NCBI GenBank assembly: GCA_021730905.1
Contig: JAKFYK010000036.1
Span: 227,734-291,733 of the forward strand
Direction: 5' to 3'
Origin: Betaproteobacteria bacterium
GTDB lineage: Bacteria; Pseudomonadota; Gammaproteobacteria; Burkholderiales; SG8-41
Length of the DNA stretch: 64,000 nucleotides
Shown here: piece by piece, positions 13,162-57,050 of the stretch
How the letters are laid out: each line of letters opens with the position of its first letter
Position numbering within the stretch: position 1 is the stretch's first letter
Translations under genes and position numbers: made by a program
The notes under the pieces: generated by a model
Database searches by the model: none
What the model was told of the DNA's origin: nothing
Seen by the model: only the letters and a program-made list of their open reading frames with translations

Positions 13162-14340
13162 TTGTTCTTTGAAAACATAGATTTTTCGTCCCTTGAACTT
13201 CCGCCCGCTGCGCTCAAGCTGCGCGACGAAGTCCGCGCGTTTCTGCGGCAGGAGATCGCTGCAGGCAGCTTTGTGCCGCATCTGGGGCACGCCGAATTCG
13301 ATAGCGCGTTCACGAAGAAGGTCGCGGCGCGCGGCTGGATCGGCCTGACCTGGCCCAAACAATACGGCGGGCAGGAACGCTCGTATCTTGAACGTTTCGT
13401 GATGACTGAGGAAATGCTCGCCGTGGCGGCACCGTGCGCCGCACACTGGTTCGGCGACCGCCAGACCGGGCCGAGTCTGTTGCGCTACGGCAGCGACTAT
13501 CTCAAGGACAAATACTTGCCGGCGATAACGCGCGGCGAAATGGCATTCGCGCTGGGCATGAGCGAGCCGGGTTCCGGTTCCGATCTCGCATCGGTGCGTA
13601 CCCGCGCTGAACCTGTCGATGGCGGCTGGCGGGTCACCGGGCAAAAAGTGTGGACGAGTTGGGCGCACAAAGCTGATGCGTTTTTCGTGCTGTGCCGCAC
13701 CGCGCCGCTGACCGAAGATCGTCACGCAGGATTATCGCAACTGATTGTGGAGATCAAAAATTCGTCCGGCGTCACGGTGCGGCCGATACGTTTCATGAAC
13801 GGCAACCACCATTTCAACGAGGTGTTCCTCGACAACGTGTTCGTGCCTGACGATCACGTGGTGGGCGAAGTCGGCCAAGGGTGGAAGCAGATTACCTCGG
13901 AACTGGCGCTGGAACGCAGCGGCCCGGAACGCTTCATGACCACGTTTCCGCTGCTGGTGGAACTGGTGCGACGACTGGCCAAAAGTGACGATGCCCGGGC
14001 ACAAGAAATGGTCGGCCGCCTCACCGCGCGCCTGTGGACGCTGCGCCGCATGTCGCTGGCCATCGCACTGGCGCTTGACCCGTCATCCGGCAAACAGGGC
14101 TCGGTCGACCTCGCCACCGAAGCCGCGCTGGTAAAGGATATGGGCACGTTCTACGAGCGCGAGATCATCGATGCCGCGCGCGTGCTGGTCACGGTGGAGC
14201 CGACGATGGACGCGGCCGATACCTTCGAACGCTATCTCGCGGAGTGTATTGTCAGCGCGCCGGTTTCCACCATACGTGGCGGCACCACACAGGTACTGCG
14301 CACTTTGATTGCGCGGCGTTTGCTGGGCTCTCTCAAATGA
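13162..14340 (+). CDS. Acyl-CoA dehydrogenase family protein (subunit 1 of a pair)
   Basis: ORF with a TTG start (uncertain). ...GMSEPGSGSDLASVRTRA..., WTSWAH. The expected C-terminal YEGT reads RGGT by eye. Confidence 0.8.
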   Translation: MFFENIDFSSLELPPAALKLRDEVRAFLRQEIAAGSFVPHLGHAEFDSAFTKKVAARGWIGLTWPKQYGGQERSYLERFVMTEEMLAVAAPCAAHWFGDRQTGPSLLRYGSDYLKDKYLPAITRGEMAFALGMSEPGSGSDLASVRTRAEPVDGGWRVTGQKVWTSWAHKADAFFVLCRTAPLTEDRHAGLSQLIVEIKNSSGVTVRPIRFMNGNHHFNEVFLDNVFVPDDHVVGEVGQGWKQITSELALERSGPERFMTTFPLLVELVRRLAKSDDARAQEMVGRLTARLWTLRRMSLAIALALDPSSGKQGSVDLATEAALVKDMGTFYEREIIDAARVLVTVEPTMDAADTFERYLAECIVSAPVSTIRGGTTQVLRTLIARRLLGSLK

Positions 14341-18890: not shown

Positions 18891-19886
18891 ATGGTCAGTC
18901 ACGGTACCGGCAGAATTCAGCCGCCAGGCATTCTCGCTCTGCTATTTGCTGTTGCCATCATGGCAATGCCGGGGCTCGCGCTGGCCCAACAGAAGTTTCC
19001 CACGAAGCCGATTCGTCTGGTGGTGGCGTTCACCGCAGGGGGCACTACGGACATCCTCGCGCGACTGATCACGCCGGGGATGACCGAGGTGTGGGGGCAG
19101 CCGATGGTGATCGAACCGCGCCCCGGCGCAGGCGGCACGCTCGCTGCGGCTATCGTCGCCAAGGCCGCTCCCGACGGCTACACGCTGCTGGCGACTTCGC
19201 CCGCGTTTGCAATCAGCGCGGTGCTGAACACCAACCTTCCCTACGATCCGCTTAAGGATTTCGTGGGTGTCGGCGAGATCGGCTACAGCACCACCGTACT
19301 GGTCGTGTCGCCCTCGCTGGGCGTGAAAACGGTGAAGGAATTTGTTGCGGCTGCGAACACAAGACCCGGCAAGCTTTTATTCGGCTCCACCGGTGCCGCC
19401 ACGTCAACGCACTTCAGCGCCGAGCGGTTTCGAGCGGTCACCGGCATCAGGGCGCAGCATGTGGCGTTTAAGGGCCAGCCGGAATTCCTGATCGAAATCG
19501 TGGCGGACCGCATTCAGTTCGGTGCTCCGGGATTGACGGTTGCGCTGCCGTTGATCAAGGACGGCAAGCTGGTGCCGCTGGCAGTGGCGACACCGCAGCG
19601 CACCCCAGCGCTGCCGGATGTTCCGGCGGCACCGGAAGTGCTGCCGGCGTGGGGGCGGGATGGGTCGCAGGCGTGGTATGCGCCGGCCGGCACACCGCGC
19701 GCCATCCGGCAGCAGATCGGCAGGGAGATAGCGCGCAACCTCGCGCTGCCCGAGGTCAGGCAGCGACTGCAAAACCTCGGATTTCACATCGCGCCAACGA
19801 CACCGGAGGAGCACGACAAAAATCTGCGCGCTGACATCGCGGTGTTTTCCCAGATCGCCAGGGAGTCCGGCCTTAAACCCAAGTGA
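18891..19886 (+). CDS. Bug/TctC-family substrate-binding protein
   Basis: AGGAGG RBS. Signal ...GLALAQQ, then KFPTKPIRLVVAFTAGGTTD. Confidence 0.9.
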   Translation: MVSHGTGRIQPPGILALLFAVAIMAMPGLALAQQKFPTKPIRLVVAFTAGGTTDILARLITPGMTEVWGQPMVIEPRPGAGGTLAAAIVAKAAPDGYTLLATSPAFAISAVLNTNLPYDPLKDFVGVGEIGYSTTVLVVSPSLGVKTVKEFVAAANTRPGKLLFGSTGAATSTHFSAERFRAVTGIRAQHVAFKGQPEFLIEIVADRIQFGAPGLTVALPLIKDGKLVPLAVATPQRTPALPDVPAAPEVLPAWGRDGSQAWYAPAGTPRAIRQQIGREIARNLALPEVRQRLQNLGFHIAPTTPEEHDKNLRADIAVFSQIARESGLKPK

Positions 19887-19900
19887 GACCCAAGTGAGAA

Positions 19901-19922
19901 GCTGGCAGCCAGTCCTGCCAGC
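19901..19922. terminator. Perfect 8-bp hairpin between convergent TctC genes
   Basis: GCTGGCAG-CCAGTC-CTGCCAGC. No clear U-tract on either strand. Confidence 0.3.
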
Positions 19923-19932
19923 AGCCAAACCG

Positions 19933-20928
19933 CTACATCTTGGGAATATTCGCGTCCTTGATCACCTGCGCCCAGCGGTCGATTTCCGCGCGCATGAATT
20001 TGTCGAACTCATCGCGGCTGGTCGGCGCGGGCGGCATCCCCAGCCCGGTCAGGCGCTTCTCGACTTCGGGGATGCGCATTACCGCGTGCAGATCGGCATT
20101 CAGCTTGTCGAGCACGGCCGTGGGTGTAGCGGCCGGCGCACACACGCCGTACCAGGAATTGACCTCGAAGTCAGGCACGCCCGATTCCGCCATCGTCGGC
20201 ACGTTCGGCAGCAGCTCCTGACGCTTTGCACTCGCGACCGCGAGCGCGCGCAAGCGTCCGTCCTGAATCGGCGCTATTACGAGCGGCGTGTTGGTCACAT
20301 TGATCGGGATTTGGCCGGCCATGACATCGCTCGTCCCCTGCCCCGCGTTTTTATAGGGAATGTTGACGATGTCGAACTTCATCCGCAACTTGAGCCACTC
20401 CATGGTCAGCTGCGGCGAGGTGCCGGGCGTCCCCGAAGCATAACTCAGCTTGCCCGGGTTCGCCTTTGCATAAGCCAGGAGCTGCTTGATCGATCGGAAC
20501 GGCGTCGACGGGTGCACGACAATAACGTTGGGCGGCATGCCGATGCGCGTGACCGGCGCGAAATCTTTATGCGCGTAGGGCAGGTCCGCGATCATCGACA
20601 GCGAAATTGCATTCGGGGCAATATTGCAATGGAGCAGCGTGTAGCCGTCGGCTGGCGACCTCGCAACAAATGCCGCGCCTATCGAGCCGGAGGCGCCCCC
20701 CCGGTTGTCAACAATGACCTGCTGGCCCCACAAGCGCGTCAGCGGATCGGAGATGATACGAGCGACAATGTCGTTTCCGGTACCCGCAGCAAACGGCACG
20801 AGGTAGCGGACAGGTTTCACTGGAAAAGTTTGTGCCGACAAAACGGCCGGGTATATCCAGACCGCAACCGCAATAGTGTAGACAAAGGCGTAAATCGACC
20901 CACGATTAGCTCTGATCGCACTGCGCAT
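19933..20928 (-). CDS. Bug/TctC-family substrate-binding protein
   Basis: ORF 19933..21012 trimmed to ATG 20928. ...PAVLSAQ, then TFPVKPVRYLVPFAAGTGND. Confidence 0.9.
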   Translation of the reverse strand: MRSAIRANRGSIYAFVYTIAVAVWIYPAVLSAQTFPVKPVRYLVPFAAGTGNDIVARIISDPLTRLWGQQVIVDNRGGASGSIGAAFVARSPADGYTLLHCNIAPNAISLSMIADLPYAHKDFAPVTRIGMPPNVIVVHPSTPFRSIKQLLAYAKANPGKLSYASGTPGTSPQLTMEWLKLRMKFDIVNIPYKNAGQGTSDVMAGQIPINVTNTPLVIAPIQDGRLRALAVASAKRQELLPNVPTMAESGVPDFEVNSWYGVCAPAATPTAVLDKLNADLHAVMRIPEVEKRLTGLGMPPAPTSRDEFDKFMRAEIDRWAQVIKDANIPKM

Positions 20929-21141
20929 CACGCACCTCCATGAAAAAGGTACCGCAAAGATGTACAGCCTGCTGGTCAACGCTCTGCCGAACTTGCGCGG
21001 CAACCCAAGCAACGCCGAGCGTCCACAAGATGATTATGGCACTCGAACGGTGCCGGGTCCACAAAATGGCGTTATTTCGCGCCGCCTTCCCCACCCGGCA
21101 GAACCGCGACAGGTTAGGGGCTGTTAGTTCCTGGTTGGTAG

Positions 21142-21558
21142 TCAGATCGGCGTCCGCCGCGGTGGCGGGACGCCAACCACGGCCAAACGTATCTTTTCAG
21201 CGCCGTTGTTGAGCAGTTGATGCTCCACCACGCCGGGCGGCATGTGGATCGTGTCTCCGGGACCCACTTGCTGCTCCTGGATCTCGCCGGATTCGGTCTT
21301 CCACTGGATCACGCCCTGCCCGCTGAGTATGAAATAGATCTCCTCGAAATCCGCCGGGTATTCGACTTTGACCCCCTCGTGGGTGTACTGATCGTGCTTG
21401 TGCCAGTGATGCGGACTGTAGCCGGGCGCAATTTCATCCACGTTGAAAAAGAATTTTTCGGTGGCGACGATTCTTCTTATCTGACCTGCTTCTTTGGGCA
21501 GGCCGCGTATGTTCTGCGGCTGAACTGCATCGGACTTTACGATTTTTAGCTGCGCCAT
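21142..21558 (-). CDS. Cupin domain protein
   Basis: ORF 21142..21579 trimmed to ATG 21558 (GGAGAA RBS). HHWHKHDQ...EEIYFILSGQG...GDTIHMPPGVVH. Confidence 0.7.
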   Translation of the reverse strand: MAQLKIVKSDAVQPQNIRGLPKEAGQIRRIVATEKFFFNVDEIAPGYSPHHWHKHDQYTHEGVKVEYPADFEEIYFILSGQGVIQWKTESGEIQEQQVGPGDTIHMPPGVVEHQLLNNGAEKIRLAVVGVPPPRRTPI

Positions 21559-47132: not shown

Positions 47133-47297
47133 GGTCGCATCCAGGTTTCATTGCCGGTATCGCTGGTAGCCTGATCCGTAATTTGGGCTTGTCGTTTCGA
47201 CCTGTCATGCTCATGCGCCATGCTGTCCGGCGTTGGTGAGAGCAGTGGCAGGCAAGATTGCCAACACGTATGCTGCAACAGACTTACAGGAGGAGGC

Positions 47298-50228
47298 GTG
47301 AGCGTCGGTCGGGCAAAAAAGGGGGCGAATAAACGCGGCCGTGCGCACGACCTGACCGAGGAGGCCCTCGAACAGCAGGCCGCCACGGCCGAGATCCTGC
47401 ATGTGATAGGCAACTCGCCGGCGGATTTGGAGCCGGTATTCCGCACCATATTGTCGAATGCCTCGCGCCTGTGCCAGGCGAGCGTGGGCGCCGTGTTCCT
47501 GTTCGATGGCGAGGTGCTGACGAATGTCGCGCACCAGAATGCATCCCCCGAATTTGTACAATTCCTGAATCGTTCTGGCCGGCGACCGAGCCGCGAAACG
47601 ACCACACGGCGGTGCGCGCTCGAGCGGTGCACGGTTCACACCGCCGACCTGCTGAATGATCCCGATTACGCGCCTCCCGAATTCCAGCGGCGCGAGAACG
47701 TACGCGCGGCGCTTTCGGTTCCGATGATACGCGATGGCGTTTTGATCGGCGTCATCACGCTGTGGCGGCATGTAACGACACCCTTTACCGACAGGCAGAT
47801 CGCACTGGTGCAGACCTTCGCCGACGAGGCAGTGATTGCCATCGAGAACGTGCGGCTATTCAGGGAACTCCAGGCGCGCAATGTCGAAATCACGGAGTCG
47901 CTGGAACAGCAGACGGCTACGGCAGACATCCTGAGCGTCATCAACAGCTCACCGACGGATCTGCAGCCGGTGTTCGACGCGATTCTGGAAAAGGCGATCC
48001 GCCTGTGCGACGCGCATATGGGCCACCTGCGGTTATACGACGGGGAAAGGTTTCTGGACGTCACGCAGCGAGGCGCCAAAGCTGAATACGCCAGGTTTCT
48101 CAGCGAAAGAGGCTCATTTCGACCGCCCCCCGGCGGGGTCTATGCACGCATGACGGACGAACGGCAACCCCTTCAGATCGCGGATATCAGGAATTCATCC
48201 GAGTACCGTGATGGCCTTAAGGGCGTAACCGCGCTGGTCGAACTGGGCGGCGCACGGACTTTTATGGTAGTGCCCATGCTCAGGGACGGACGTGTCGTCG
48301 GTGGCATCTCCATTTACCGCCCCGAGGTGCGCCCGTTTACGCAGAGGCAGATAGCCCTGGTAAGCACGTTTGCGAATCAGGCGGTGATCGCGATTGAGAA
48401 CGTGCGCTTGTTCAAGGAACTCGAAATACGCAACAAGGATCTGTCTGAAACGCTGGAACAACAGACCGCAACCGCCGAGATCCTGCGGGTAATGTCGAAC
48501 TCGCCGGCTGACGTGCAGCCGGTGTTCGAGGCGATCGTGCGCAGCGGAATCCGCCTGTTCGAGGGCGCAGGCGTGACGTTGTCCCGTCCCGAGAATGGAC
48601 AGGTACGACTGATGGCGATCGCCGAGCGCGATCCGCAGCGCGTGCGTCTGTGGAATGCGCGCTTTCCCTTTCCGCTGACGCGCGAGTACATGCATGGTGC
48701 GGCTATCCTTGATTGCCGCATGGTCGATATGCCGGACGTTGAGCAAATGGACGAGCACTTCGCGGCCGGTAAGCGCAATTTCGCCGCCTCAGGATACCGC
48801 GCCATGACGGTCGTGCCGATGGTCAAGGAGGGTGCTGCAATCGGTACGATTTCAGTGGTGCGCGACGCGGCAGGGCCATTGAGCGACAAGAAAATCGCGC
48901 TGCTGAAGACGTTCGCCGATCAGGCGGTGATCGCCATCGAGAACGTGCGGTTGTTCAATGAAACCAAAGAGGCGCTCGAACAGCAGACGGCCATCAGCGA
49001 AATCCTGCACGTGATCTCGGGTTCTCCTGGCGACGTGGCACGAATGCTCGAGGCCGTGGCGCTACGCGCCGTGAAACTCTGCGAGTCGGGCGAAGCAGGC
49101 ATCTTCCTGCTTGACGGTGAGCGGCTGAAATTCGCGGCCGGCTGCCAGAGCGGGGAGACCTTCAGGCCGGGCGAAACCATACCGCTAAGCCGCGGCAGCG
49201 TGCTGGGACGCGCCGTCATCGACCGTGAGACCGTGCATGTTGTCGACCTGGCAGCCACCGCCGCCGGGGATTTTCCATTAGGCATCGAGTATCAAAAACG
49301 GTTTGGGCACCGCAGCCTCGTCGCCGTGCCGCTCATGCAAAAGGACCGTGCCATCGGCGTGATCGGACTGTGGCGTTTCGAGGTGCGGGAGTTCAGCGAA
49401 AAGCATATTGCGCTGGTCCGGACTTTTGCCGACCAGGCGGCGATTGCGATAGAGAATGTGTCGCTGTTCAACGAGATTCAGGAGAAGAGCCGACAGCTTG
49501 AGATCGCCAGCCGCCACAAGTCCGAGTTCCTCGCCAACATGTCGCACGAACTGAGGACGCCGCTCAACGCGGTCATCGGCTTTACGCGCATCGTCATGCG
49601 TCGCTCCCGCGAACAAATCGAGACCCGGCAATACGAGAATCTGGAAAAGATACTCTCGAGCGGGCAGCACCTGCTTGCGCTCATCAACTCGATCCTCGAC
49701 CTCGCCAAGGTGGAGGCAGGGCGCGTCGAGATCAATGCAACGCAGATCGGCCTTGCGTCAGTGCTTGAAAGCTGCGCGCGCACCATCGAACCGCTGGTAA
49801 AGGCCGAGGCTGTGACGCTGGTGAAGGAGTTCGGCGATACCCTGCCGCAGATGTACGTCGACGAAGAAAAACTGCGGCAGATCGTGATCAACCTGCTGAG
49901 CAATGCCGCCAAATTTACTGCGCACGGCAGCATCCGGCTGCGGGCGCGGGCACTGAACGACTCCGTCGTGATTGCCGTTACCGACACCGGTATCGGCATT
50001 GCCCCCGACAAGCTCGACGTGGTCTTCGAGGAGTTCGCGCAAGCCGATGCAAGCAGCACACGCGTCTATGGCGGCACGGGGCTCGGCCTTACCATCGCGC
50101 GCCGCCTCGCCCGGCTCATGGCCGGAGAAATAACGGCGGAGAGCACGATCGGCAGCGGCTCGACATTCACGCTGATCCTACCGCTGCGCTATGGTTCGTC
50201 TGGCCCGTCCAAGGCATCCGGCGTATGA
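47298..50228 (+). CDS. Cytoplasmic sensor histidine kinase with four tandem GAF modules
   Basis: ORF 47220..50228. GTG 47298 follows AGGAGG. There are four repeats of LEQQTA(T/I)(A/S)(E/D)IL...SP.D..PVF...FA(D/N)(E/Q)A(V/A)IAIENV(R/S)LF. Then the H-box SHELRTPLN and an HATPase (GTGLGL). No TM segment. Confidence 0.85.
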   Translation: MSVGRAKKGANKRGRAHDLTEEALEQQAATAEILHVIGNSPADLEPVFRTILSNASRLCQASVGAVFLFDGEVLTNVAHQNASPEFVQFLNRSGRRPSRETTTRRCALERCTVHTADLLNDPDYAPPEFQRRENVRAALSVPMIRDGVLIGVITLWRHVTTPFTDRQIALVQTFADEAVIAIENVRLFRELQARNVEITESLEQQTATADILSVINSSPTDLQPVFDAILEKAIRLCDAHMGHLRLYDGERFLDVTQRGAKAEYARFLSERGSFRPPPGGVYARMTDERQPLQIADIRNSSEYRDGLKGVTALVELGGARTFMVVPMLRDGRVVGGISIYRPEVRPFTQRQIALVSTFANQAVIAIENVRLFKELEIRNKDLSETLEQQTATAEILRVMSNSPADVQPVFEAIVRSGIRLFEGAGVTLSRPENGQVRLMAIAERDPQRVRLWNARFPFPLTREYMHGAAILDCRMVDMPDVEQMDEHFAAGKRNFAASGYRAMTVVPMVKEGAAIGTISVVRDAAGPLSDKKIALLKTFADQAVIAIENVRLFNETKEALEQQTAISEILHVISGSPGDVARMLEAVALRAVKLCESGEAGIFLLDGERLKFAAGCQSGETFRPGETIPLSRGSVLGRAVIDRETVHVVDLAATAAGDFPLGIEYQKRFGHRSLVAVPLMQKDRAIGVIGLWRFEVREFSEKHIALVRTFADQAAIAIENVSLFNEIQEKSRQLEIASRHKSEFLANMSHELRTPLNAVIGFTRIVMRRSREQIETRQYENLEKILSSGQHLLALINSILDLAKVEAGRVEINATQIGLASVLESCARTIEPLVKAEAVTLVKEFGDTLPQMYVDEEKLRQIVINLLSNAAKFTAHGSIRLRARALNDSVVIAVTDTGIGIAPDKLDVVFEEFAQADASSTRVYGGTGLGLTIARRLARLMAGEITAESTIGSGSTFTLILPLRYGSSGPSKASGV

Positions 50229-50587
50229 AGTCCATACTCATAGTCGAAGATGTCGAACTGAACCGTGATCTATTGGTACAGTTGCTCGAGGACAGTTACC
50301 AGTTGGTGCTTGCCGCGGACGGTGTAACCGCACTTGAGCGCGCAGCCGAGGTAAAGCCAGACCTGATACTCATGGATCTTTCTCTTCCGCGCATGGACGG
50401 CTGGGAAGCCACGCGGATACTGAAGGCGGATGCGGCGCTCTCGCACATACCTGTGATCGCACTTTCGGCCCATGCCATGCGCAGCCACGAGGCGCGTGCA
50501 CGGGCGAGCGGTTGCGACGATTTTCTCACCAAGCCGATCGACGAAACACTGCTCTTCAAGAAAATAGCGAGTTACCTTGGCAACTGA
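50225..50587 (+). CDS. Single-domain response regulator (REC only)
   Basis: ATGA overlap with the kinase stop. ILIVEDVELN...LILMDLSLPRMDG...KP. Confidence 0.85.
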   Translation: MKSILIVEDVELNRDLLVQLLEDSYQLVLAADGVTALERAAEVKPDLILMDLSLPRMDGWEATRILKADAALSHIPVIALSAHAMRSHEARARASGCDDFLTKPIDETLLFKKIASYLGN

Positions 50588-50597
50588 ACCGTCATCC

Positions 50598-51983
50598 ATG
50601 GTTGCTACCGTCCTCATCGTCGACGACGAGCCGTTGAACGTCGATCTGCTCGAGCAGGAGCTCGCGGCAGCGGGATATCGGACGCTGTCGGCTGCGAACG
50701 GCGAAGAAGCGCTGACCGTGGCGAAGGCGCTGCCCGACCTGGTGCTCCTCGACGTGATGATGGAAGGCCTTGATGGCTACGCGGTGTGCGAGCGGCTGAA
50801 GGCCAACGATGCCACGCGTACGATTCCGGTGATCTTCCTGACAGCGCTGACGGATTCATTCGAGAAAGTGCGCGCTTTTTCAGTCGGCGCGGTGGACTAC
50901 GTGACCAAGCCTTTCGAGACCGGGGAGCTGCTGGCGCGCGTCGGCACCCATATCGCCTTGCGCAGGGAAATCGAAGCACACCGCAAGTCGAGATCGACAA
51001 TTCAGTATCTGGTGGAGGAAATCCGCTCGGATCGCGACGCGATGGTGGGCGAATCGCCGGCGCTGAGACATGTCCGGGAGCAGATCGCACAGGTCGCGCC
51101 CACCGACAGCACCGTGTTGATTCAGGGCGAGACCGGCACGGGAAAGGAGTTGGTCGCGCGCGCAATCCACGAACTCAGCTTGCGTCGCGAGCGGCCGCTG
51201 ATTAAAGTCAATTGCGCCGCACTGCCGCGCGATCTGGTGGAAAGCGAACTGTTCGGCCATGAAAAAGGTGCGTTCACCGGCGCCACCCAGCAACGCCGCG
51301 GGCGCTTTGAGCTTGCCGACGGCGGCACGCTGTTTCTCGACGAAGCGGGCGAGCTTCCGCTCGACACCCAGGCCAAACTGCTGCGCGTGCTGCAAGAGCG
51401 CGAGTTCGACCGCGTCGGCGGCACACGCAGCCTGCGCACCGATGTGCGGGTAATCGCCGCCACAAACCGCGATCTGCACGCACGCGTCGAGGATGGCGGC
51501 TTTCGCGCCGATCTCTACTACCGGCTCAACGTATTTCCGATTGTGGTGCCGCCGTTGCGCGAGCGCCGCGACGACATTCCCGGCCTGGTGCGGCACTTCG
51601 TGGCAAAGGCCGCGCGCAAACTCGGGCGCACACTAGACGGAATCTCTCCTGCTTTCGTCGAACGCGCATGTGCCTACGCGTGGCCGGGTAATATCCGCGA
51701 ACTGGAAAATCTTGTCGAACGCGCGGCCATTATGTCGCGCGGCGCAGTGCTCGATGCCGTCGATCTTTTCTCGTCAGCTTCTGCAACTGCATCTGAAAAA
51801 ACGCCCGCTGTAATGGCGGGCGACGCCATGCTCGAAGCTGTCGAACGCGCGCACATACAGCAGGTGTTGGAACGCACGCGCTGGGTAATCGAAGGCGAGC
51901 GAGGCGCGGCTCGCATTCTTGGTCTCAATCCCAGCACACTACGCGGCCGACTGCGCAAGCTCGGCATTCGCAAGACCTCTTAA
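50598..51983 (+). CDS. Sigma-54-dependent response regulator (NtrC family: REC + AAA+ + Fis-type HTH)
   Basis: ORF 50577..51983 (TTG). ATG 50598 preferred. VLIVDDEPLN...LLDVMMEGLDG. Walker A GETGTGKE. GAFTGA loop in HEKGAFTGA. C-terminal ...AARILGLNPSTLRGRLRKLGI. Confidence 0.9.
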   Translation: MVATVLIVDDEPLNVDLLEQELAAAGYRTLSAANGEEALTVAKALPDLVLLDVMMEGLDGYAVCERLKANDATRTIPVIFLTALTDSFEKVRAFSVGAVDYVTKPFETGELLARVGTHIALRREIEAHRKSRSTIQYLVEEIRSDRDAMVGESPALRHVREQIAQVAPTDSTVLIQGETGTGKELVARAIHELSLRRERPLIKVNCAALPRDLVESELFGHEKGAFTGATQQRRGRFELADGGTLFLDEAGELPLDTQAKLLRVLQEREFDRVGGTRSLRTDVRVIAATNRDLHARVEDGGFRADLYYRLNVFPIVVPPLRERRDDIPGLVRHFVAKAARKLGRTLDGISPAFVERACAYAWPGNIRELENLVERAAIMSRGAVLDAVDLFSSASATASEKTPAVMAGDAMLEAVERAHIQQVLERTRWVIEGERGAARILGLNPSTLRGRLRKLGIRKTS

Positions 51984-51985
51984 GT

Positions 51986-52039
51986 CGTCGTATTTCGCGG
52001 ATTTCCCCCGTCATATTTGACAGTGCCGTCATATTTGAC
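51986..52039 (+). promoter_or_regulatory. Upstream activator sites of cassette P1 (three related sites, two GTCA-N4-TGAC dyads)
   Basis: CGTCGTATTTCGC (51986), CCGTCATATTTGAC (52008) and CCGTCATATTTGAC (52026). Offsets are 23 and 18 bp. Centres lie roughly -118, -95 and -77 relative to the predicted start. Confidence 0.5.
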
Positions 52040-52054
52040 GACCTTATAAATTTA

Positions 52055-52071
52055 TAAGTATTTGTTTTTAT
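52055..52071 (-). repeat. AT-rich box S8 (reverse orientation, inside sigma-54 cassette P1)
   Basis: TAAGTATTTGTTTTTAT. TGGCAC begins 31 nt after the ATAA that precedes the core. It overlaps the perfect 16-bp palindrome CTTATAAATTTATAAG (52043-52058). Confidence 0.75.
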
Positions 52072-52084
52072 TCATTTTTTTGTT

Positions 52085-52099
52085 TGGCACGCGACTTGC
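52085..52099 (+). promoter_or_regulatory. Sigma-54 (-24/-12) promoter P1
   Basis: TGGCACGCGACTTGC has the canonical GG-N10-GC spacing. It lies 43 nt upstream of ATG 52142, downstream of the UAS and AT box S8. Confidence 0.7.
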
Positions 52100-52141
52100 C
52101 ATAAGTCAAGCTCCGATAAATCATTTTTTCAACAAAGGAGC

Positions 52142-53011
52142 ATGATCATGACCACCGCATTGCAAACCCGTAAGTCCGTCTCTTCCAACCAAGCGCCATC
52201 CACCAGTGCACCGGTGAATTTCGACGCCATCAAGCAAAAACAGCAAGCCACGTGGGCGAGCGGCGATTTCGCCATCATCGGCACCACGCTGCAAATCGTC
52301 GGCGAGACCCTGGCGGAAGCCGCCGACGTGCGTGCCGGCGAACGTGTATTGGACGTAGCTGCCGGCAACGGCAACGCCACGCTCGCTGCCGCACGGCGCT
52401 TTGCGCAGGTGACTTCCACCGATTACGTGCCGCACCTGCTGGAAAAAGGCGCCGCGCGCGCTAGGGCCGAGGGACTCGAGGTGCGCTTCGAGGTCGCGGA
52501 CGCCGAAGCCCTGCCCTACGCAGGTGAATCCTTCGACGTTGTACTGTCCTCCTTCGGCGCGATGTTCACGCCGCAACACAGCCGCACCGCGCTCGAACTG
52601 CTGCGCGTCACGCGCCGCGGCGGGCGCATTGGCCTCGCGAACTGGACACCCGAAGGCTTCATCGGGCAACTGTTCCGCGTCATCGGTGCTTATGTGCCGC
52701 CGCCCGCCGGCATGCAGTCGCCGGCGTTGTGGGGCACCGAGTCGCACATCGCGAAGCTGTTTGGCACGCAGGTCTCCGACATCCGTTGCGTGCGGCGCAA
52801 CTTCAACTTCCGCTACCGTTCAGCGCAGCACTGGATTGACGTATTCCGCGCTTTCTACGGACCTACGCACAAGACATTCGCGGCACTCGATTCGGCAAAC
52901 CAGGTGAGCCTTGCGGCAAGCATCACCGCCCTGCTCGACAAGCTGAACGTGGGCGGGCCGGGCTCGCTGGTAGTACCGAGCGAGTACCTCGAAGTCGTCA
53001 TCACCAGATAA
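52142..53011 (+). CDS. Class I SAM-dependent methyltransferase
   Basis: AAAGGAG RBS. VLDVAAGNGNATL (motif I), ...FDVVLSSFGAMF..., ...GGRIGLANW.... Confidence 0.85.
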   Translation: MIMTTALQTRKSVSSNQAPSTSAPVNFDAIKQKQQATWASGDFAIIGTTLQIVGETLAEAADVRAGERVLDVAAGNGNATLAAARRFAQVTSTDYVPHLLEKGAARARAEGLEVRFEVADAEALPYAGESFDVVLSSFGAMFTPQHSRTALELLRVTRRGGRIGLANWTPEGFIGQLFRVIGAYVPPPAGMQSPALWGTESHIAKLFGTQVSDIRCVRRNFNFRYRSAQHWIDVFRAFYGPTHKTFAALDSANQVSLAASITALLDKLNVGGPGSLVVPSEYLEVVITR

Positions 53012-53037
53012 CCATCACACCTCTCAAGGAGAATGCC

Positions 53038-54180
53038 ATGAAAAAATTGATTTGCGCCGCCACGCTGGCGGCAATTATTGGCGCGGCCACTACGGCACAT
53101 GCCGAAACCGGCAGCGCCGCACCCACGCAGGAATCGGCCACTTTAACGTGGAACAAAATCGCGCTGGAGTCTATCGAGCGCGCCAAGCCCACGCAGCATC
53201 AGGCGATACGGCTACTCACGCATGTGTCGCTGGCGCAGTACGCGGCACTCGCCGCGGCAAACGAGGCAGCGGCGCGCGATGCCGTGGCCGCGGCATCGGC
53301 GCGTGTCATCGCCGAACTGATGCCCACGCAGGCATCATTTGCACAGGAACGTTATCGTCAGTCGCAAGCCGGTACAATCGATGCCGGGGTGCGCGCCGCG
53401 CAACGCGTGCTCGATGAGGCGCGCAGTGATGGCTTTGGCACGGCCTGGAACGGCCAGGCGCCGCAAGCGGCTTGGGCATGGCGCAGCCTGGCGAATCCGC
53501 CAGCGCCGGCAGCGTATCCAGCGATCGGCGGCATGCGCACCTTCTTCGCCGAGTCCGGCAATAGCTTTCGGCCCGTAACCGCTCCCGCGCCCGGCACTAC
53601 ACGCTTTACCACCGATATCACGGAAGTGCGTTCCTATACCGACGCGCCGACGGCGGAAACCACGCGCATTGCAAAGTTCTACGACATGACCACCGGCACG
53701 CTGGCAGGCGGCTTCTGGAACGAACGCGTAGCGGAACTGATACGCAGGCACGCAACCGGTGAGCGGCAAACGGCAACCGTTCTGGTCACACTCAACGCCG
53801 CGATGATGGATGCGCTTGTCGCGTGCCACGACGCAAAGTACGTCTACTGGGTACCACGCCCGTCGCAGGCAGACCCGTCGATCAAGCCGCTGATCGATGT
53901 GCCCAATCATCCGTCGTATCCGAGCAACCATTCATGTCTTTCCACCGCGGCCGCGTTGGTACTCGCGCACTTCTTTCCACAGGAACGTCCGCGTATGGAA
54001 AGCATTGCAACGGAAGCGGGCGTCTCCAGAATCTACGCCGGCCTGCACTACCGTTTCGACGTGGAGGCAGGTGAAGACATCGGCCGCAAAGTGGCGAACG
54101 TGGCGATTGCGCGCCATGCGCAAATGCTGGCGAAGTGGGCACAACCCGAAGCCGTCGCAAGGCAGGCAGCGCGGGAGTAA
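53038..54180 (+). CDS. Secreted PAP2-superfamily protein (vanadium-haloperoxidase / acid-phosphatase-like)
   Basis: Signal ...TTAHAE. The full PAP2 signature is present: KYVYWVPRP (Kx6RP), PSNH (PSGH-like), SRIYAGLHYRFD (SRx5Hx3D). Confidence 0.8.
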   Translation: MKKLICAATLAAIIGAATTAHAETGSAAPTQESATLTWNKIALESIERAKPTQHQAIRLLTHVSLAQYAALAAANEAAARDAVAAASARVIAELMPTQASFAQERYRQSQAGTIDAGVRAAQRVLDEARSDGFGTAWNGQAPQAAWAWRSLANPPAPAAYPAIGGMRTFFAESGNSFRPVTAPAPGTTRFTTDITEVRSYTDAPTAETTRIAKFYDMTTGTLAGGFWNERVAELIRRHATGERQTATVLVTLNAAMMDALVACHDAKYVYWVPRPSQADPSIKPLIDVPNHPSYPSNHSCLSTAAALVLAHFFPQERPRMESIATEAGVSRIYAGLHYRFDVEAGEDIGRKVANVAIARHAQMLAKWAQPEAVARQAARE

Positions 54181-54204
54181 TTGCCTACACAAAATACCCG
54201 ACAG

Positions 54205-54231
54205 CCGGCGGACTGAATGTCCGCCGGTTTT
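54205..54231 (+). terminator. Rho-independent terminator
   Basis: CCGGCGGAC-TGAAT-GTCCGCCGG followed by TTTT, starting 25 nt after the stop at 54180. Confidence 0.7.
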
Positions 54232-54236
54232 GCTTG

Positions 54237-54865
54237 TCGGGGCCAAGGGCGGCGAGGTCGTGTTGCAATGCGCAGGTACCGACCTGCATCGCGTACATCA
54301 CTCGGCCGTCTATAACTAGAACCTATTTCATGATTATTCGCGTGATGCGTTGTGGCCCAAACACGATGGATGCAAGGAGCGCGGCAGTCCCAGCTTCGAA
54401 TAGGGGCAAGCCGTGCGACGCCGCAGACGCGTGTTTGGGCCACAACCCTTCGGGACGGGGCACTGCGGGCGCGCTGCTTTGTCGGCCTCGCTTGCCATAT
54501 TCGCGATATGGCTGCGCGAGTCCTCCTCGCATCGCATCCCGCATTGCCGCCGTCGCACACGTGAATAATCATGAAATAGGTTCTAGTCATCGAGCAACGT
54601 CGGATTCAACCTACCGTACTGGGATCGACTGTGCGGCACGCATCTCGCGCAACCGGCTGCTGGTGCAGCCGTTCCGCGACACGCCTGGGACTCACCCGAT
54701 CAACCTGCGCCAGGAGGCGCCGTGAGCGTTTGGCGCGCGCTGATCCCGCACTTGCTTGATCGCTTCTGAAATCAAATTCTGAAGTGGGTCAATATTCAAT
54801 CAGCGCCAACATTGCAGCTCGCTCGCGGCCGGCTACGCAAGCTCGGCATCCGCAAGACTTCCTGA
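54237..54865 (+). pseudogene. Decayed paralog of the NtrC-type activator (REC missing, internal deletions, frame changes, MITE insertion)
   Basis: Frame-hopping remnants, each compared with gene 50598..51983: VLLVGAKGGEVV...HRVHHSA (cf VLIQGETGTGKELVARAIHELS); IDCAA (cf VNCAA); RLLVQPF...INLRQE (cf RLNVFPIVVPPLRER); LIPHLLDRF (cf DIPGLVRHF); ...GRLRKLGIRKTS* (identical C-terminus). Confidence 0.55.
54315..54587. mobile_element. 273-bp MITE-like non-autonomous element
   Basis: The 30-bp terminal inverted repeats ACTAGAACCTATTTCATGATTATTCGCGTG (54315-54344) and 54558-54587 are 29/30 complementary. The GC-rich interior holds a perfect 17-bp stem (54349-54365 / 54430-54446) and the hairpin GCCATAT-TCGCG-ATATGGC. 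No plausible ORF. Target-site duplication not identifiable. Confidence 0.6.
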
Positions 54866-54866
54866 A

Positions 54867-54921
54867 CCGTCGTATTCAGCGGATTTGCACCGTCATATTT
54901 GACGGCACCGTCGTATTCAAC
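54867..54921 (+). promoter_or_regulatory. Upstream activator sites of cassette P2
   Basis: CCGTCGTATTCAGC (54867), CCGTCATATTTGACGG (54890, a perfect 6-N4-6 dyad) and CCGTCGTATTCAAC (54908). The 23/18-bp offsets match P1. Confidence 0.5.
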
Positions 54922-54936
54922 AGCGTTAAATATGTA

Positions 54937-54953
54937 TAACTATTTGATTTTAT
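54937..54953 (-). repeat. AT-rich box S9 (reverse orientation, inside sigma-54 cassette P2)
   Basis: TAACTATTTGATTTTAT. Its reverse complement contains AATCAAATAGTTA, a perfect match to the IHF consensus WATCAANNNNTTR. The 31-nt offset to TGGCAT matches P1. Confidence 0.75.
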
Positions 54954-54966
54954 TAAATTTTTATAT

Positions 54967-54981
54967 TGGCATGCGTCTTGC
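54967..54981 (+). promoter_or_regulatory. Sigma-54 (-24/-12) promoter P2
   Basis: TGGCATGCGTCTTGC has GG-N10-GC spacing. It lies 54 nt upstream of ATG 55035, downstream of the UAS and AT box S9. Confidence 0.7.
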
Positions 54982-55034
54982 GATATATCGGTTGCCAGCG
55001 GGGAATTTGGTCCTCGCCAGAAAAGGAAACCGAC

Positions 55035-55676
55035 ATGAAAACTGAAACGAACAAGCTACTTACACAGGCCGCTCATCAATCGCAAATTGCTGCCCGTTAC
55101 GTCATTGCTGCTTCGATTACGCTGACCGCGCTCACAGTTGCCAGCTGTGCCAGCGTGGGCGCCTTGGAAAACACTGCAATCGTTCCCGCCACGCTCCATC
55201 CAGGTGCAAACGAGTTGTTGACCAACGTCGTTCCTGCGAACGGCGTGCAAATTTACGAATGCCGCGCGCGCAAGGATCAGCCTGATGCGTACGAATGGGC
55301 GTTCGTCGCACCTGAAGCTACTTTGTTCGATGAGCGTGGAAACCGCATTGGTCGCCATTACGGCGGGCCGCATTGGGAATCGAACGATGGCAGCAAGATC
55401 GTGGGTGCGGTCAAGGAACGCGCCGATGCGCCGGCGACCCATGCAATCCCGTGGCTGCTGCTTGCCGCGAAATCCGTTGGTCCACAAGGCTCGTTCAGCA
55501 AAGTAACCAGCATCCAGCGCGTGAATACCGCGGGCGGCACAGCGCCCCAAGATGGCTGTTCGCGGGAGCTCGCAGGCACGACGACACGTGTTGGTTACTC
55601 GGCCGACTACTACTTTTTCAGTGCGAAGCAAACCGGCCAGCGCGCGAGCAATCAGGTAGCGCAGCCGCGCTATTGA
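55035..55676 (+). CDS. DUF3455 domain protein (exported, possible lipoprotein)
   Basis: ORF 54966..55676 trimmed to ATG 55035 (AAGGAAA RBS). ...LTVASC.... IYECRA...YEWAFVAPEATLFDERGNRIGRHYGGPHWESNDGSKIVG...IPWLLL...IQRVNTAGG. Confidence 0.75.
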   Translation: MKTETNKLLTQAAHQSQIAARYVIAASITLTALTVASCASVGALENTAIVPATLHPGANELLTNVVPANGVQIYECRARKDQPDAYEWAFVAPEATLFDERGNRIGRHYGGPHWESNDGSKIVGAVKERADAPATHAIPWLLLAAKSVGPQGSFSKVTSIQRVNTAGGTAPQDGCSRELAGTTTRVGYSADYYFFSAKQTGQRASNQVAQPRY

Positions 55677-55719
55677 TGCCCCAGGCAATCGCAGAGTCCC
55701 AGGCCAAAGGGAAATCAAC

Positions 55720-55935
55720 ATGAAAAACCTCACCTACGAAATCTATCTCGCCCACCCGGAGATCCGGGACCAGATCGAACGGGAGGTGCGCCGCGCGCGC
55801 GCCGAAGCATTCGACCAGTACGTCATAGCACCGCTGATAAATGCATTCCGCAAGTTGTTCAGGTGCGCCGCGCTTCCATTCGCCGGGCCGGATGTCCGGA
55901 ACGGCATTCACTTCAACCCCCAATCAAGGAGTTAA
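55720..55935 (+). CDS. Small hypothetical protein (71 aa)
   Basis: ORF track. AAGGGA RBS. The stop lies 2 nt before the next start. No family recognised. Confidence 0.45.
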   Translation: MKNLTYEIYLAHPEIRDQIEREVRRARAEAFDQYVIAPLINAFRKLFRCAALPFAGPDVRNGIHFNPQSRS

Positions 55936-55937
55936 TC

Positions 55938-56873
55938 ATGCAAACCATGCAACACAATGAAGCACACGATCGGTATGCCAAGTGCATCGAAGTCTCCAAG
56001 CGCATCCGCTGGGAGATCGACCGCGACGTGATCCGCGGGCGCAGCTTCGACGTATCGAAGAAATTCCTGCCTGACGGCCTGTGCAGGATCGGCAAACTAG
56101 ATTTTCTCGGCGCCGCAGAGAAGCGCCTGGTGAGCCAGATACAGGGCCGCACCTACGCCAACATGTTCGGCCTGGTAGAACGTTTCATCGGTGCCAAGAT
56201 GCTCGAGATCAGCCGCGAACACTGGCTCGGCGACCAAACCGCGCTCGAGGCGCTGGTGCGTTTTACCGACGAGGAACTCAAGCACCAGGAGCTGTTCCGC
56301 CGCATCGAGCAAATGGTTGCTCCAGACATGCCCGCAGGCTACAGTTTTATGCCGCAGCCCAACGACGTTGCAACGGCGGTGCTGGGAAAATGCACTTGGG
56401 CTGTCCTCGCGCTGACCTGCCACATCGAACTTTTCACGCAGGCGCATTACCGGCAGAGCATCGAGCCTGACTCCGATCTTTCCGATCTGTGGAAGGATGT
56501 GTTCCTGTTCCACTGGAAGGAGGAGTCGCAGCATGCGATCCTCGACGAGCTGGAATGGAAGCGCGAGGATGCAAAGCTGACACCGCAGCAACGCGACCAG
56601 GCTGTTTCCGACCTCATTGATCTCGTCGCCGCCGTGGACGGCATCCTGCAATTGCAGGCCGCCGCTGACACAGACTATTTCCTGCGCATATGCGGCAGAA
56701 TTTTCCAGAAAGCACAGGTAACCGCGATAGGCGACGCAATGCTCGCTGCGTACCGCTGGCAGTACATCACCTCGGGCGTACAGGACGAGCGCTTCGGCAA
56801 GATCCTGAGCGGCATGATCACTGGCGCGCAGATGGAGCGTATCGGTGCCGCACTTGCGCCTATCGTCAACTGA
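55938..56873 (+). CDS. Ferritin-like di-iron oxygenase (AurF-like)
   Basis: ORF 55863..56873 trimmed to ATG 55938 (AAGGAG RBS). Two ExxH motifs (TDEELKHQE, WKEESQHAILDE) plus upstream Glu residues (LVERF, HIELF). Confidence 0.7.
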   Translation: MQTMQHNEAHDRYAKCIEVSKRIRWEIDRDVIRGRSFDVSKKFLPDGLCRIGKLDFLGAAEKRLVSQIQGRTYANMFGLVERFIGAKMLEISREHWLGDQTALEALVRFTDEELKHQELFRRIEQMVAPDMPAGYSFMPQPNDVATAVLGKCTWAVLALTCHIELFTQAHYRQSIEPDSDLSDLWKDVFLFHWKEESQHAILDELEWKREDAKLTPQQRDQAVSDLIDLVAAVDGILQLQAAADTDYFLRICGRIFQKAQVTAIGDAMLAAYRWQYITSGVQDERFGKILSGMITGAQMERIGAALAPIVN

Positions 56874-56881
56874 AACAAGCG

Positions 56882-56919
56882 GAAAAAGCGAGGGGCCTTA
56901 TGGGTATTTATGGCCTCTC
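56882..56919 (-). terminator. Candidate terminator for the minus-strand protease-like gene
   Basis: The minus strand reads GAGAGGCC-N14-GGCCCCTC followed by GCTTTTTCC. About 130 nt beyond the stop at 57051. Confidence 0.35.
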
Positions 56920-57050
56920 GTCGACATCTATCCGTTCGTCGATGCATGGTGACACGCAACATGGATGAACGAATCAGACCAGGGTAACGCCCTATCGACG
57001 ACTCTGTGTTGCCCTGCCCGCGCGGAAAAGCGGTACAGCGGTTTCGGACC

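Follow-up and report, generated by a model that had tools for sequence, protein, structure and literature searches.

Two diverged copies of a sigma-54 enhancer-promoter cassette, probably read by one activator, in front of two neighbouring operons of a Betaproteobacteria bacterium

In a 64,000-nucleotide stretch of a Betaproteobacteria bacterium genome (contig JAKFYK010000036.1; the whole stretch is referred to as the window), the end of an NtrC-type activator gene and the promoter region that follows it occur twice, which raises the questions of what was duplicated, how, and whether one regulator now acts at both copies. The activator gene lies in a regulatory module with the following genes:

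47220-50228, + strand: sensor histidine kinase with four GAF domains, HisKA and HATPase_c (Pfam), first gene of the module
50225-50587, + strand: single-domain response regulator, receiver domain alone (Pfam)
50577-51983, + strand: NtrC-type sigma-54 activator with a receiver domain, an AAA+ domain with GAFTGA motif, and HTH_8

The activator probably starts at the ATG at 50598, from which the same protein is called as P0001. Its domains include those for sigma-54 interaction (Sigma54_activat, E=3e-74, with the GAFTGA loop present in the translation as HEKGAFTGATQQ), the AAA+ lid and HTH_8. No RpoN-box peptide is encoded in the 64-kb window, and rpoN is not in it. The two copies of the region behind the activator form a direct repeat (51932-52107 and 54815-54985), referred to as cassette copies A and B, with these parts:

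51932-52107, + strand: copy A, the 176-bp unit, continuous on its left side with the intact activator gene
51942-51983, + strand: copy A, end of the functional activator coding sequence (13 codons plus stop)
51987-52039, + strand: copy A, three dyad sites, GTCGTATTTCGC at 51987 and GTCATATTTGAC at 52010 and 52028
52055-52067, + strand: copy A, IHF-like site TAAGTATTTGTTT, one mismatch against YAANNNNTTGATW
52085-52099, + strand: copy A, predicted sigma-54 promoter TGGCACGCGACTTGC, with a predicted transcription start at about 52111
54815-54985, + strand: copy B, continuous on its right side with the ancestral 5' leader and operon
54824-54865, + strand: copy B, the same 13 codons and stop of the activator as a non-coding fossil, without a usable upstream reading frame
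54869-54921, + strand: copy B, three dyad sites, GTCGTATTCAGC, GTCATATTTGAC and GTCGTATTCAAC
54937-54949, + strand: copy B, IHF-like site TAACTATTTGATT, matching YAANNNNTTGATW exactly
54967-54981, + strand: copy B, predicted sigma-54 promoter TGGCATGCGTCTTGC

Both copies have the same architecture: the final 13 activator codons with their stop, then three dyads, an IHF-like site and a canonical GG-N10-GC promoter. The dyads are of the GTC-N6-GAC type, with centers about 77, 95 and 118 nt 5' of the predicted start, and the distances between centers (23 and 18 bp) are the same in both copies. Dyad matches with at most two mismatches number 10 in the window versus 3.0 expected, a count reached by no shuffle. 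Promoters were recognized by GG and GC 10 nt apart, fitting TGGCAC-N5-TTGCW; the pattern TGGCAY-N5-TTGC has only two matches in the 64 kb, one in each copy. The IHF consensus WATCAANNNNTTR has three exact matches in the window versus 0.8 expected, and 6 of 100 shuffles also reach three.

The claim of the earlier note that these segments are duplicated was borne out by a repeat search (family D1), which aligned 51942-52103 with 54824-54985 without gaps over 162 nt (79% identity, spacing 2882), and by blastn against the window, in which a single gap lengthened the match to 51932-52103 and 54815-54985 (E=2.9e-27; 78.7% over 174 columns). As to its coordinates, 51941-52100 does lie in the repeat, but the true partner at an offset of 2882 is 54823-54982, and the stretch 54815-54823 can be aligned only with a 1-nt gap. 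Similarity is not confined to AT-rich tracts in the pairwise alignment, and extends over the G+C-rich coding tail (36 of 42 nt identical), the site region (44/57), the AT-rich region (32/44) and the -24/-12 element (13/16). The internal offsets of 23, 18, 14 and 31 nt that had been described as conserved were all found on the sequence, although they follow automatically from a gapless alignment. Promoters of one regulon frequently share motifs, and the two regions could in principle have converged through binding the same proteins. This has practically no chance of being correct and was rejected, as it is already refuted by the alignment: the gapless similarity of 162 nt takes in the spacers (E=3e-27), and 42 nt of activator coding sequence, which have no role 5' of the gene for a DUF3455 protein, are repeated. 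The data therefore support a true duplication of the activator 3' end together with a complete sigma-54 enhancer-promoter cassette.

The ancestral arrangement can be approached through ten related loci with a single cassette, nine with activators 80-89% identical to the one in the window and a tenth, L082, at 83%. In all ten, the cassette directly follows the activator stop and has the same sites, IHF-like site, promoter and leader; the -24/-12 element is kept in every related cassette, and the IHF-like site stands at the same position between enhancer and promoter in all relatives. Homology to L082 sets the duplicated unit at 176 bp (L082 5991-6166), as copy A matches L082 as far as 52107 and copy B matches from 54815 on. 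The following features lie between and after the copies:

52148-53011, + strand: class I SAM-dependent methyltransferase (Pfam), first gene after copy A, with an alternative ATG at 52142
53038-54180, + strand: PAP2/vanadium-haloperoxidase-like protein, second gene after copy A
54203-54229, + strand: intrinsic terminator-like hairpin of 11 pairs (8 G-C) followed by a T run
54273-54316, + strand: fatty-acid-hydroxylase-family relic, 3' end of a gene, part 1 (ending in TDLHRVHHSAVYN)
54317-54594, no strand assigned: MITE-like insertion with 36-nt terminal inverted repeats, not at the same site in the relative L173
54595-54769, + strand: hydroxylase relic, part 2 (beginning with FGFNLPYWDRLCGT), stop at 54767-54769, adjoining copy B
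54986-55034, + strand: conserved 5' leader after copy B, common to all single-cassette relatives and lacking after copy A
55035-55676, + strand: DUF3455 protein (Pfam), first gene after copy B
55720-55935, + strand: 71-residue protein (MKNLTYEIYL...), orthologous to the gene that comes first behind the cassette in most relatives
55938-56873, + strand: 311-residue protein that matches no family confidently (weak AurF-like match), conserved last gene of the target operon

The leader is identical to that of L082 at 33 of 40 positions after copy B, versus 15 of 40 after copy A. No recombinase was found in the inserted block, which in the window encodes the methyltransferase and PAP2; in L173, a globin gene and small reading frames accompany PAP2 in the insert. 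One and the same nucleotide, at about -5/-4 relative to the promoter, marks both the boundary of the duplicated unit in the window, where the methyltransferase block would have been captured, and the left end of the later loss of the methyltransferase gene in L173. In the closed complex, sigma-54 polymerase reaches downstream to roughly this position.

The earlier note had further proposed that the activator gene and its target promoter were duplicated as a unit. On such an account, the whole activator, or even the whole two-component module, was copied along with the promoter, and the second activator was later deleted down to 13 codons. Copy B does start within coding sequence, and its tail encodes the same 13-residue peptide RGRLRKLGIRKTS as copy A with 100% identity in tblastn. 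All six nucleotide differences between the two tails are silent or exchange one stop for another, and the truncated gene in the spacer 5' of copy B indicates that deletions have occurred at the locus. However, tblastn of the activator against the window found only residues 456-468 at copy B (54824-54862), no activator remnant beyond this tail. The DNA directly 5' of copy B is instead the hydroxylase-family relic with its own stop, split by the MITE, and no other activator, kinase or receiver remnant is present there in the window or in L173. Polarization with outgroups assigns only two to three of the silent changes to the B lineage, for which the likelihood by chance is roughly 3-10%, and the all-silent differences do not demonstrate past coding of this tail. 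The orthologous copy-B tail of L173 has Gly to Ser and Arg to Pro changes, a 2-nt insertion and a damaged stop; these missense changes and indels argue that the tail is non-coding. Further, the two B tails share no changes older than the split between the window and L173 lineages, leaving little time for a coding phase, and extra events would be required to place the methyltransferase/PAP2 block. We therefore consider duplication of a whole activator unlikely, with a small probability left for an early and complete loss of a second one.

Our preferred scenario, duplication of the cassette alone, starts from the order activator, cassette, 5' leader and operon, as in the ten relatives. A block with the methyltransferase gene, the PAP2 gene and the hydroxylase gene end would have been inserted at about -5 of the promoter, with the 176-bp cassette duplicated to both sides of it. 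Each copy would thereby have kept one ancestral junction, that to the activator gene in copy A and that to the leader and operon in copy B, and the 13 codons in copy B would be a non-coding fossil of the insertion event, not the remains of a second activator. Part of this scenario is directly shown, and part of it we infer. Candidate mechanisms include template switching during replication, recombination of the unequal or Campbell type, and homology-facilitated illegitimate recombination in which a near-identical donor took part. Of 80 methyltransferase loci, none showed the activator-cassette-methyltransferase layout of such a donor, and sliding identity against relatives gave no clear recombination breakpoint in the activator gene. 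A far more speculative idea, to which we give very little credence, is that the promoter-proximal junction is a recurrent breakpoint, at which stably bound sigma-54 polymerase could stall replication and trigger template switching. If this were true, sigma-54 promoters would be preferred sites for gene insertion with simultaneous promoter duplication, and the nested duplication that surrounds DUF3455, of leader and start codon, would have arisen in a further event of this kind.

Both copies are also present in the syntenic, diverged relative L173/L174, with the same junction between hydroxylase relic and activator tail, which argues that the duplication is old and has been retained. Cassette DNA of the window lineage is about 20% different from that of the L173 lineage, and copies A and B were nearly identical when these lineages split. 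Orthologous pairs (81% for the A copies, 80% for the B copies) are no closer than paralogous ones (77-82%); the cassette tree is star-like and poorly resolves the age and direction of the duplication. Of the 84 columns invariant in eight orthologous cassettes, 78 are retained in copy A and 79 in copy B (about 94%), whereas A and B agree at just 57 of 82 variable columns (Fisher p=0.008); for the non-coding part alone, agreement is 44/52 versus 50/72, which is borderline (p=0.058). Lineage-private changes number 9-12 in each of the two window and two L173 copies, versus 11 in the single-copy L082 cassette. Across 12 aligned cassettes, site 2 reads CCGCC..GGCGG in five and CCGTC..GACGG in the others, with two mixed, so that its half-sites change together, although few independent events lie behind this pattern.

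The earlier suggestion that both cassettes are under selection thus fits what we found, as both look maintained in two lineages, with about 94% of invariant columns kept and a rate of change like that of L082. It is conceivable that only one copy functions and the other is a decaying by-product of rearrangement, its genes being expressed in another way. The right half of site 3 in copy B is weakened and differs at three otherwise invariant positions, and copy B may be the weaker one for this reason; the IHF-like site of copy A has its one mismatch. Against decay, both copies persist in two lineages, where their GG-N10-GC elements are intact and every copy has two or more good dyads, each retains about 94% of the constrained columns, and both change at the rate of the single-copy cassette of L082. 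No sigma-70-like promoter was found 5' of DUF3455, and the sole candidate near the methyltransferase (52096-52124, 9/12 match) is of a kind expected at chance frequency. Finally, the terminator-like hairpin at 54203-54229 sits between the two transcription units. A single functional copy is accordingly, in our view, quite improbable.

Taken together, we regard it as probable that these are paralogous copies of one sigma-54 enhancer-promoter cassette, with a predicted shared activator and an origin by insertion; most likely, one regulator drives two neighbouring operons. The GAF-domain kinase would phosphorylate the activator, which would bind both sets of dyads, loop the DNA and open sigma-54 RNA polymerase at both promoters. 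Copy A would give a methyltransferase and PAP2 transcript ending at the hairpin, and copy B a transcript of the DUF3455, 71-residue and 311-residue protein genes. By acting at both copies, the activator would place two transcription units under one signalling pathway. PAP2 is fused to DUF3455 in homologues elsewhere, and a methyltransferase gene lies directly 3' of homologues of the 311-residue protein gene in three loci (L122, L134 and L138), suggesting that the captured genes are functionally coherent with the older ones.

As an instance of gene capture through a duplicated promoter the locus is clear but ordinary, and reveals no new mechanism. Its value is that it documents the growth of a bacterial regulon in good preservation: genes with functional links to the older ones in other taxa appear to have been recruited into a two-component/sigma-54 circuit that already existed, with duplication of the whole enhancer-promoter as the means, and the fossil of the activator 3' end in copy B makes the source of the copy evident. 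It also provides a defined predicted binding-site model (three dyads, IHF-like site and -24/-12 element) for an uncharacterised activator family that is widespread in soil bacteria, with target genes without known function (encoding DUF3455, DUF2917, AurF-like, haloperoxidase-like PAP2 and methyltransferase proteins).

Classical enhancer-dependent sigma-54 promoters (glnAp2, nifH and Pu types) have an adjacent NtrC-family activator and IHF-assisted looping. The cassettes resemble them in the GG-N10-GC element, the dyads about 70-120 bp upstream, the AT-rich IHF-like site in between, and the neighbouring gene for a receiver/AAA+ (GAFTGA)/HTH_8 activator, but here the cassette is present twice in tandem orientation. 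In the reiterated nif/fix promoter regions of rhizobia, about 160 bp are common to the Sinorhizobium meliloti nifH and fixA promoters. There, too, an enhancer and sigma-54 promoter block of about 160 bp stands before different operons of one activator's regulon, although the activator is another member of the family, the organism is different, and the copy described here carries a fragment of the activator gene.

Putative mobile promoters, i.e., promoter regions found 5' of non-homologous genes in one genome, rewire regulation with no known mobile element as carrier (Nijveen, Matus-Garcia and van Passel 2012, PMC3575422). Copies A and B likewise precede non-homologous genes of one genome, the methyltransferase and DUF3455 genes. 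Unlike those 'highly similar' promoters, they are 79% identical and old. The duplicate lies only 2.9 kb from the original and comprises, besides the full enhancer, a fossil of the gene next to it, which reveals its source; the window and L173 have two copies each.

Tandem duplication led to promoter capture in the rnk-citT event of the E. coli long-term experiment (summarised in PMC3575422), and tandem duplications that activate transferred genes are described in PMC11111574. The resemblance is that a rearrangement junction sets a promoter directly before genes lacking one and that gene fragments are left at junctions. Starting from the single-cassette ancestor, however, the present layout requires two new junctions, for which a simple tandem duplication would be insufficient without subsequent deletions.

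[quoted passage not shown] 2017, PMC5361080). The locus shares with them an intact upstream gene, an orphan 3' end and older genes shifted beyond a new block. It differs in showing a single round, in the near identity of copies A and B at the window/L173 split, and in that the displaced unit holds the promoter, by which the older genes are predicted to stay expressed.

A repeat search of the window recovered a gap-free direct repeat of 162 nt at 51942-52103 and 54824-54985, with 79% identity and a spacing of 2882 nt. With one gap, blastn extends this repeat to 51932/54815 (174 columns at 78.7%, E=2.9e-27), and a MAFFT alignment of the two copies is consistent with the blastn result. The repeated unit (referred to here as the cassette, 176 bp) consists of the last 13 codons and stop of an activator gene (the tail), three dyad sites, an IHF-like site, and a predicted sigma-54 promoter. 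Copy A (51932-52107) begins within the last 13 codons of the intact activator gene, and copy B (54815-54985) lies before a DUF3455 gene. The two segments that an earlier note described as duplicated therefore form a genuine direct repeat, and their similarity is not limited to AT tracts: it extends from the G+C-rich coding tail through the site and AT-rich regions to the promoter. The cassette can be described by a pattern such as CCGTCRTATTYRAC, followed about 50 nt downstream by TGGCAY-N5-TTGC. Only two sigma-54 consensus matches occur in the 64 kb, one per copy; the GTC-N6-GAC-type dyad motif is commoner than expected in the window, and no Rfam match was found across 50000-57000. The features of the region are as follows:

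47220-50228, histidine kinase with four GAF domains
50225-50587, receiver-only protein
50577-51983, NtrC-type activator with receiver, AAA+ (GAFTGA) and HTH_8 domains
51987, 52010 and 52028, three dyad sites of copy A, GTC-N6-GAC type
52055-52067, IHF-like site of copy A
52085-52099, predicted sigma-54 promoter of copy A, TGGCAC-N5-TTGC
54273-54316 and 54595-54769, hydroxylase relic (13982-14190 in the related metagenome locus L173), directly upstream of the tail in both genomes
54317-54594, MITE-like element of 278 bp, with terminal inverted repeats of 36 nt at 54309-54344 and 54558-54593
54869, 54892 and 54910, dyad sites of copy B, offsets equal to those of copy A
54937-54949, IHF-like site of copy B, offset equal to that of copy A
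54967-54981, predicted sigma-54 promoter of copy B, offset equal to that of copy A

Copy A is followed by genes encoding a class I methyltransferase and a PAP2/haloperoxidase-like protein and then by a strong terminator-like hairpin, and copy B by the genes of DUF3455 and of two further proteins, one of 71 and one of 311 residues, the latter with a weak AurF-like match.

Activator homologues at 75-90% identity are numerous in soil metagenomes; a scan of the genome collection with the activator was dominated by generic sigma-54 activators (best 41-57% identity) and yielded no orthologues. In nine metagenome loci (L081, L083-L087, L168-L170), the kinase, receiver, and activator genes are followed by one cassette, in which the three sites, the IHF-like site, and the promoter recur and to which a conserved 5′ leader is attached. 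Genes for a small protein and DUF2917 come next, in most cases together with that for the 311-residue protein. L083 also carries a second small-protein/DUF2917/311-residue cluster (19609-21166), 8 kb 3′ of the activator's target operon, without a recognisable cassette and behind two GerE-type regulator genes. In a further relative, L082, the single cassette and leader precede DUF3455, the small protein, and the 311-residue protein. L082 5991-6166 matches copy A as far as window 52107, and copy B starting at 54815. The leader is present in the window 3′ of copy B and absent after copy A (33/40 vs. 15/40 positions matching L082). By these alignments, the junction of copy A with the activator gene and that of copy B with the leader and operon are both ancestral; the new junctions are promoter (-5)/methyltransferase leader and spacer/tail. 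Insertion of a lone cassette copy between PAP2 and DUF3455 is rejected, because the junction of copy B with the leader is ancestral. The layout appears to be one in which a block was inserted into the cassette and now has a copy of it on either side.

The earlier note had also proposed that the whole activator gene and its target promoter were duplicated as one unit; this part of its interpretation is not supported, although the observation of the repeat is confirmed. A tblastn search with the activator matched only residues 456-468 at copy B, and upstream of this tail are the last ~40 codons of a fatty-acid-hydroxylase/sterol-desaturase-family gene with its own stop (54767-54769), containing the third histidine box and WDRLFGT motif (HRVHH...NFGFNLPxWDRLFGT) and matching the last 28 profile positions of Pfam PF04116 (E=1e-5 and 4e-6). 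A small reading frame across the copy-B tail was considered and rejected, as no more than a possible 17-codon TTG frame is left after the in-frame stop at 54767-54769. The six differences between the two tails are all silent; polarised by outgroups, three fall on copy A, which is coding, and two or perhaps three on copy B. The tail of the L173 copy B carries Gly to Ser and Arg to Pro changes, an insertion, and a damaged stop, and the two B copies have no derived tail change in common. Judged from these sequences, the copy-B tail does not point to a second activator, and appears to be a freely drifting fossil.

A second genome with both copies (L173/L174) was found via a PAP2 homologue (P0124, 89%). 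It is syntenic with the window, with copy A′ before PAP2 and copy B′ before DUF3455; its two metagenome contigs are 99.99% identical apart from a block immediately 5′ of the kinase gene (L174 2715-5027), which encodes an IS1595-family transposase and a PIN-domain protein. The presence of both copies, together with the same DNA 5′ of the B and B′ tails, argues that the duplication is older than the split of the two lineages. L173 lacks the MITE-like element and has an empty site there. In the window this element splits the relic, and its predicted fold is an extended hairpin (-95.5 kcal/mol, z=-10.9); neither a clean target-site duplication nor a further copy in the window or fetched loci was seen. 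The PAP2-to-spacer interval is 2.8 kb longer in L173, and its methyltransferase gene is lost but for the last 15 codons, now fused to the promoter before PAP2. The left end of this deletion (window 52106/52107; L173 9929/9930) is the nucleotide that ends the duplicated cassette, about -5 of the promoter; the breakpoints of two independent events thus coincide, which is an oddity of the locus. Window/L173 identity ranges from 78 to 92% by block, a background too uneven for a replaced segment to be called.

Both copies appear to be maintained. Among eight orthologous cassettes (166 columns, 84 invariant), the invariant columns are kept at 78/84 in copy A and 79/84 in copy B, and the two copies agree at 57 of the 82 variable columns (p=0.008; non-coding alone p=0.058). 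A, A′, B, and B′ all retain GG-N10-GC along with the IHF-like site and two or more good dyads, with site 3 weakened in window copy B. Lineage-private changes are similar in number (A 9, A′ 11, B 12, B′ 9, and single-copy L082 11). Only 1-2 changes are common to A and A′, or to B and B′, and all pairwise identities, L082 included, are 76-82%; A and B were thus near-identical when the lineages split, and the copy came from the same or a near-identical genome. Comparison of the four copies gave no sign of later gene conversion, the A-B identity (78%) being no higher than A-B′ (81%).

Fusions of PAP2 and DUF3455 (55035-55676 in the window) in one polypeptide occur in several other organisms (P0134, P0153, P0154, P0173, P0185, P0191, P0213), so that the two operons' products are likely to act together. 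In other taxa, the methyltransferase gene directly follows a gene homologous to that of the 311-residue protein (L122 1-1431, L134 5837-8795, L138 6-1135; in L134 with an alpha/beta-hydrolase gene between them), which points to a conserved functional module. Given these fusions and neighbours, the captured methyltransferase and PAP2 genes would fit the resident operon. The PAP2 protein (53038-54180) has a second domain of vanadium-haloperoxidase type (precomputed Pfam hits), and the 311-residue protein (55938-56873) contains two E-x-x-H motifs, weakly matches the Pfam family of AurF, a di-iron N-oxygenase (E=0.012), and matches no NCBIfam model. A second, nested insertion-like flanking duplication is present at 55005-55045, before DUF3455, and 55695-55735, before the 71-residue gene, each comprising the final ~30 nt of the conserved leader together with the start codon and two further codons; DUF3455 appears to have entered by an insertion like that of the methyltransferase block.

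Replication template switching, Campbell-type or unequal recombination, or homology-facilitated illegitimate recombination could each give rise to this layout. No recombinase is present in the inserted block, and no donor was found: none of 80 metagenome loci retrieved with the methyltransferase has the cassette upstream. A search of a plasmid collection matched only stand-alone methyltransferase genes (Burkholderiales). Sigma-54-like matches inside the methyltransferase genes of the 80 loci were dismissed, being on the wrong strand in a conserved coding motif. The spacer (54181-54823) has no second copy in the window or fetched loci, so that nothing of a tandem-duplication partner is seen 3′ of the operon; no clear recombination breakpoint was detected in the activator gene.

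[quoted passage not shown] The case is one of promoter reuse or capture (PMC3575422) in which a complete sigma-54 enhancer-promoter is affected.
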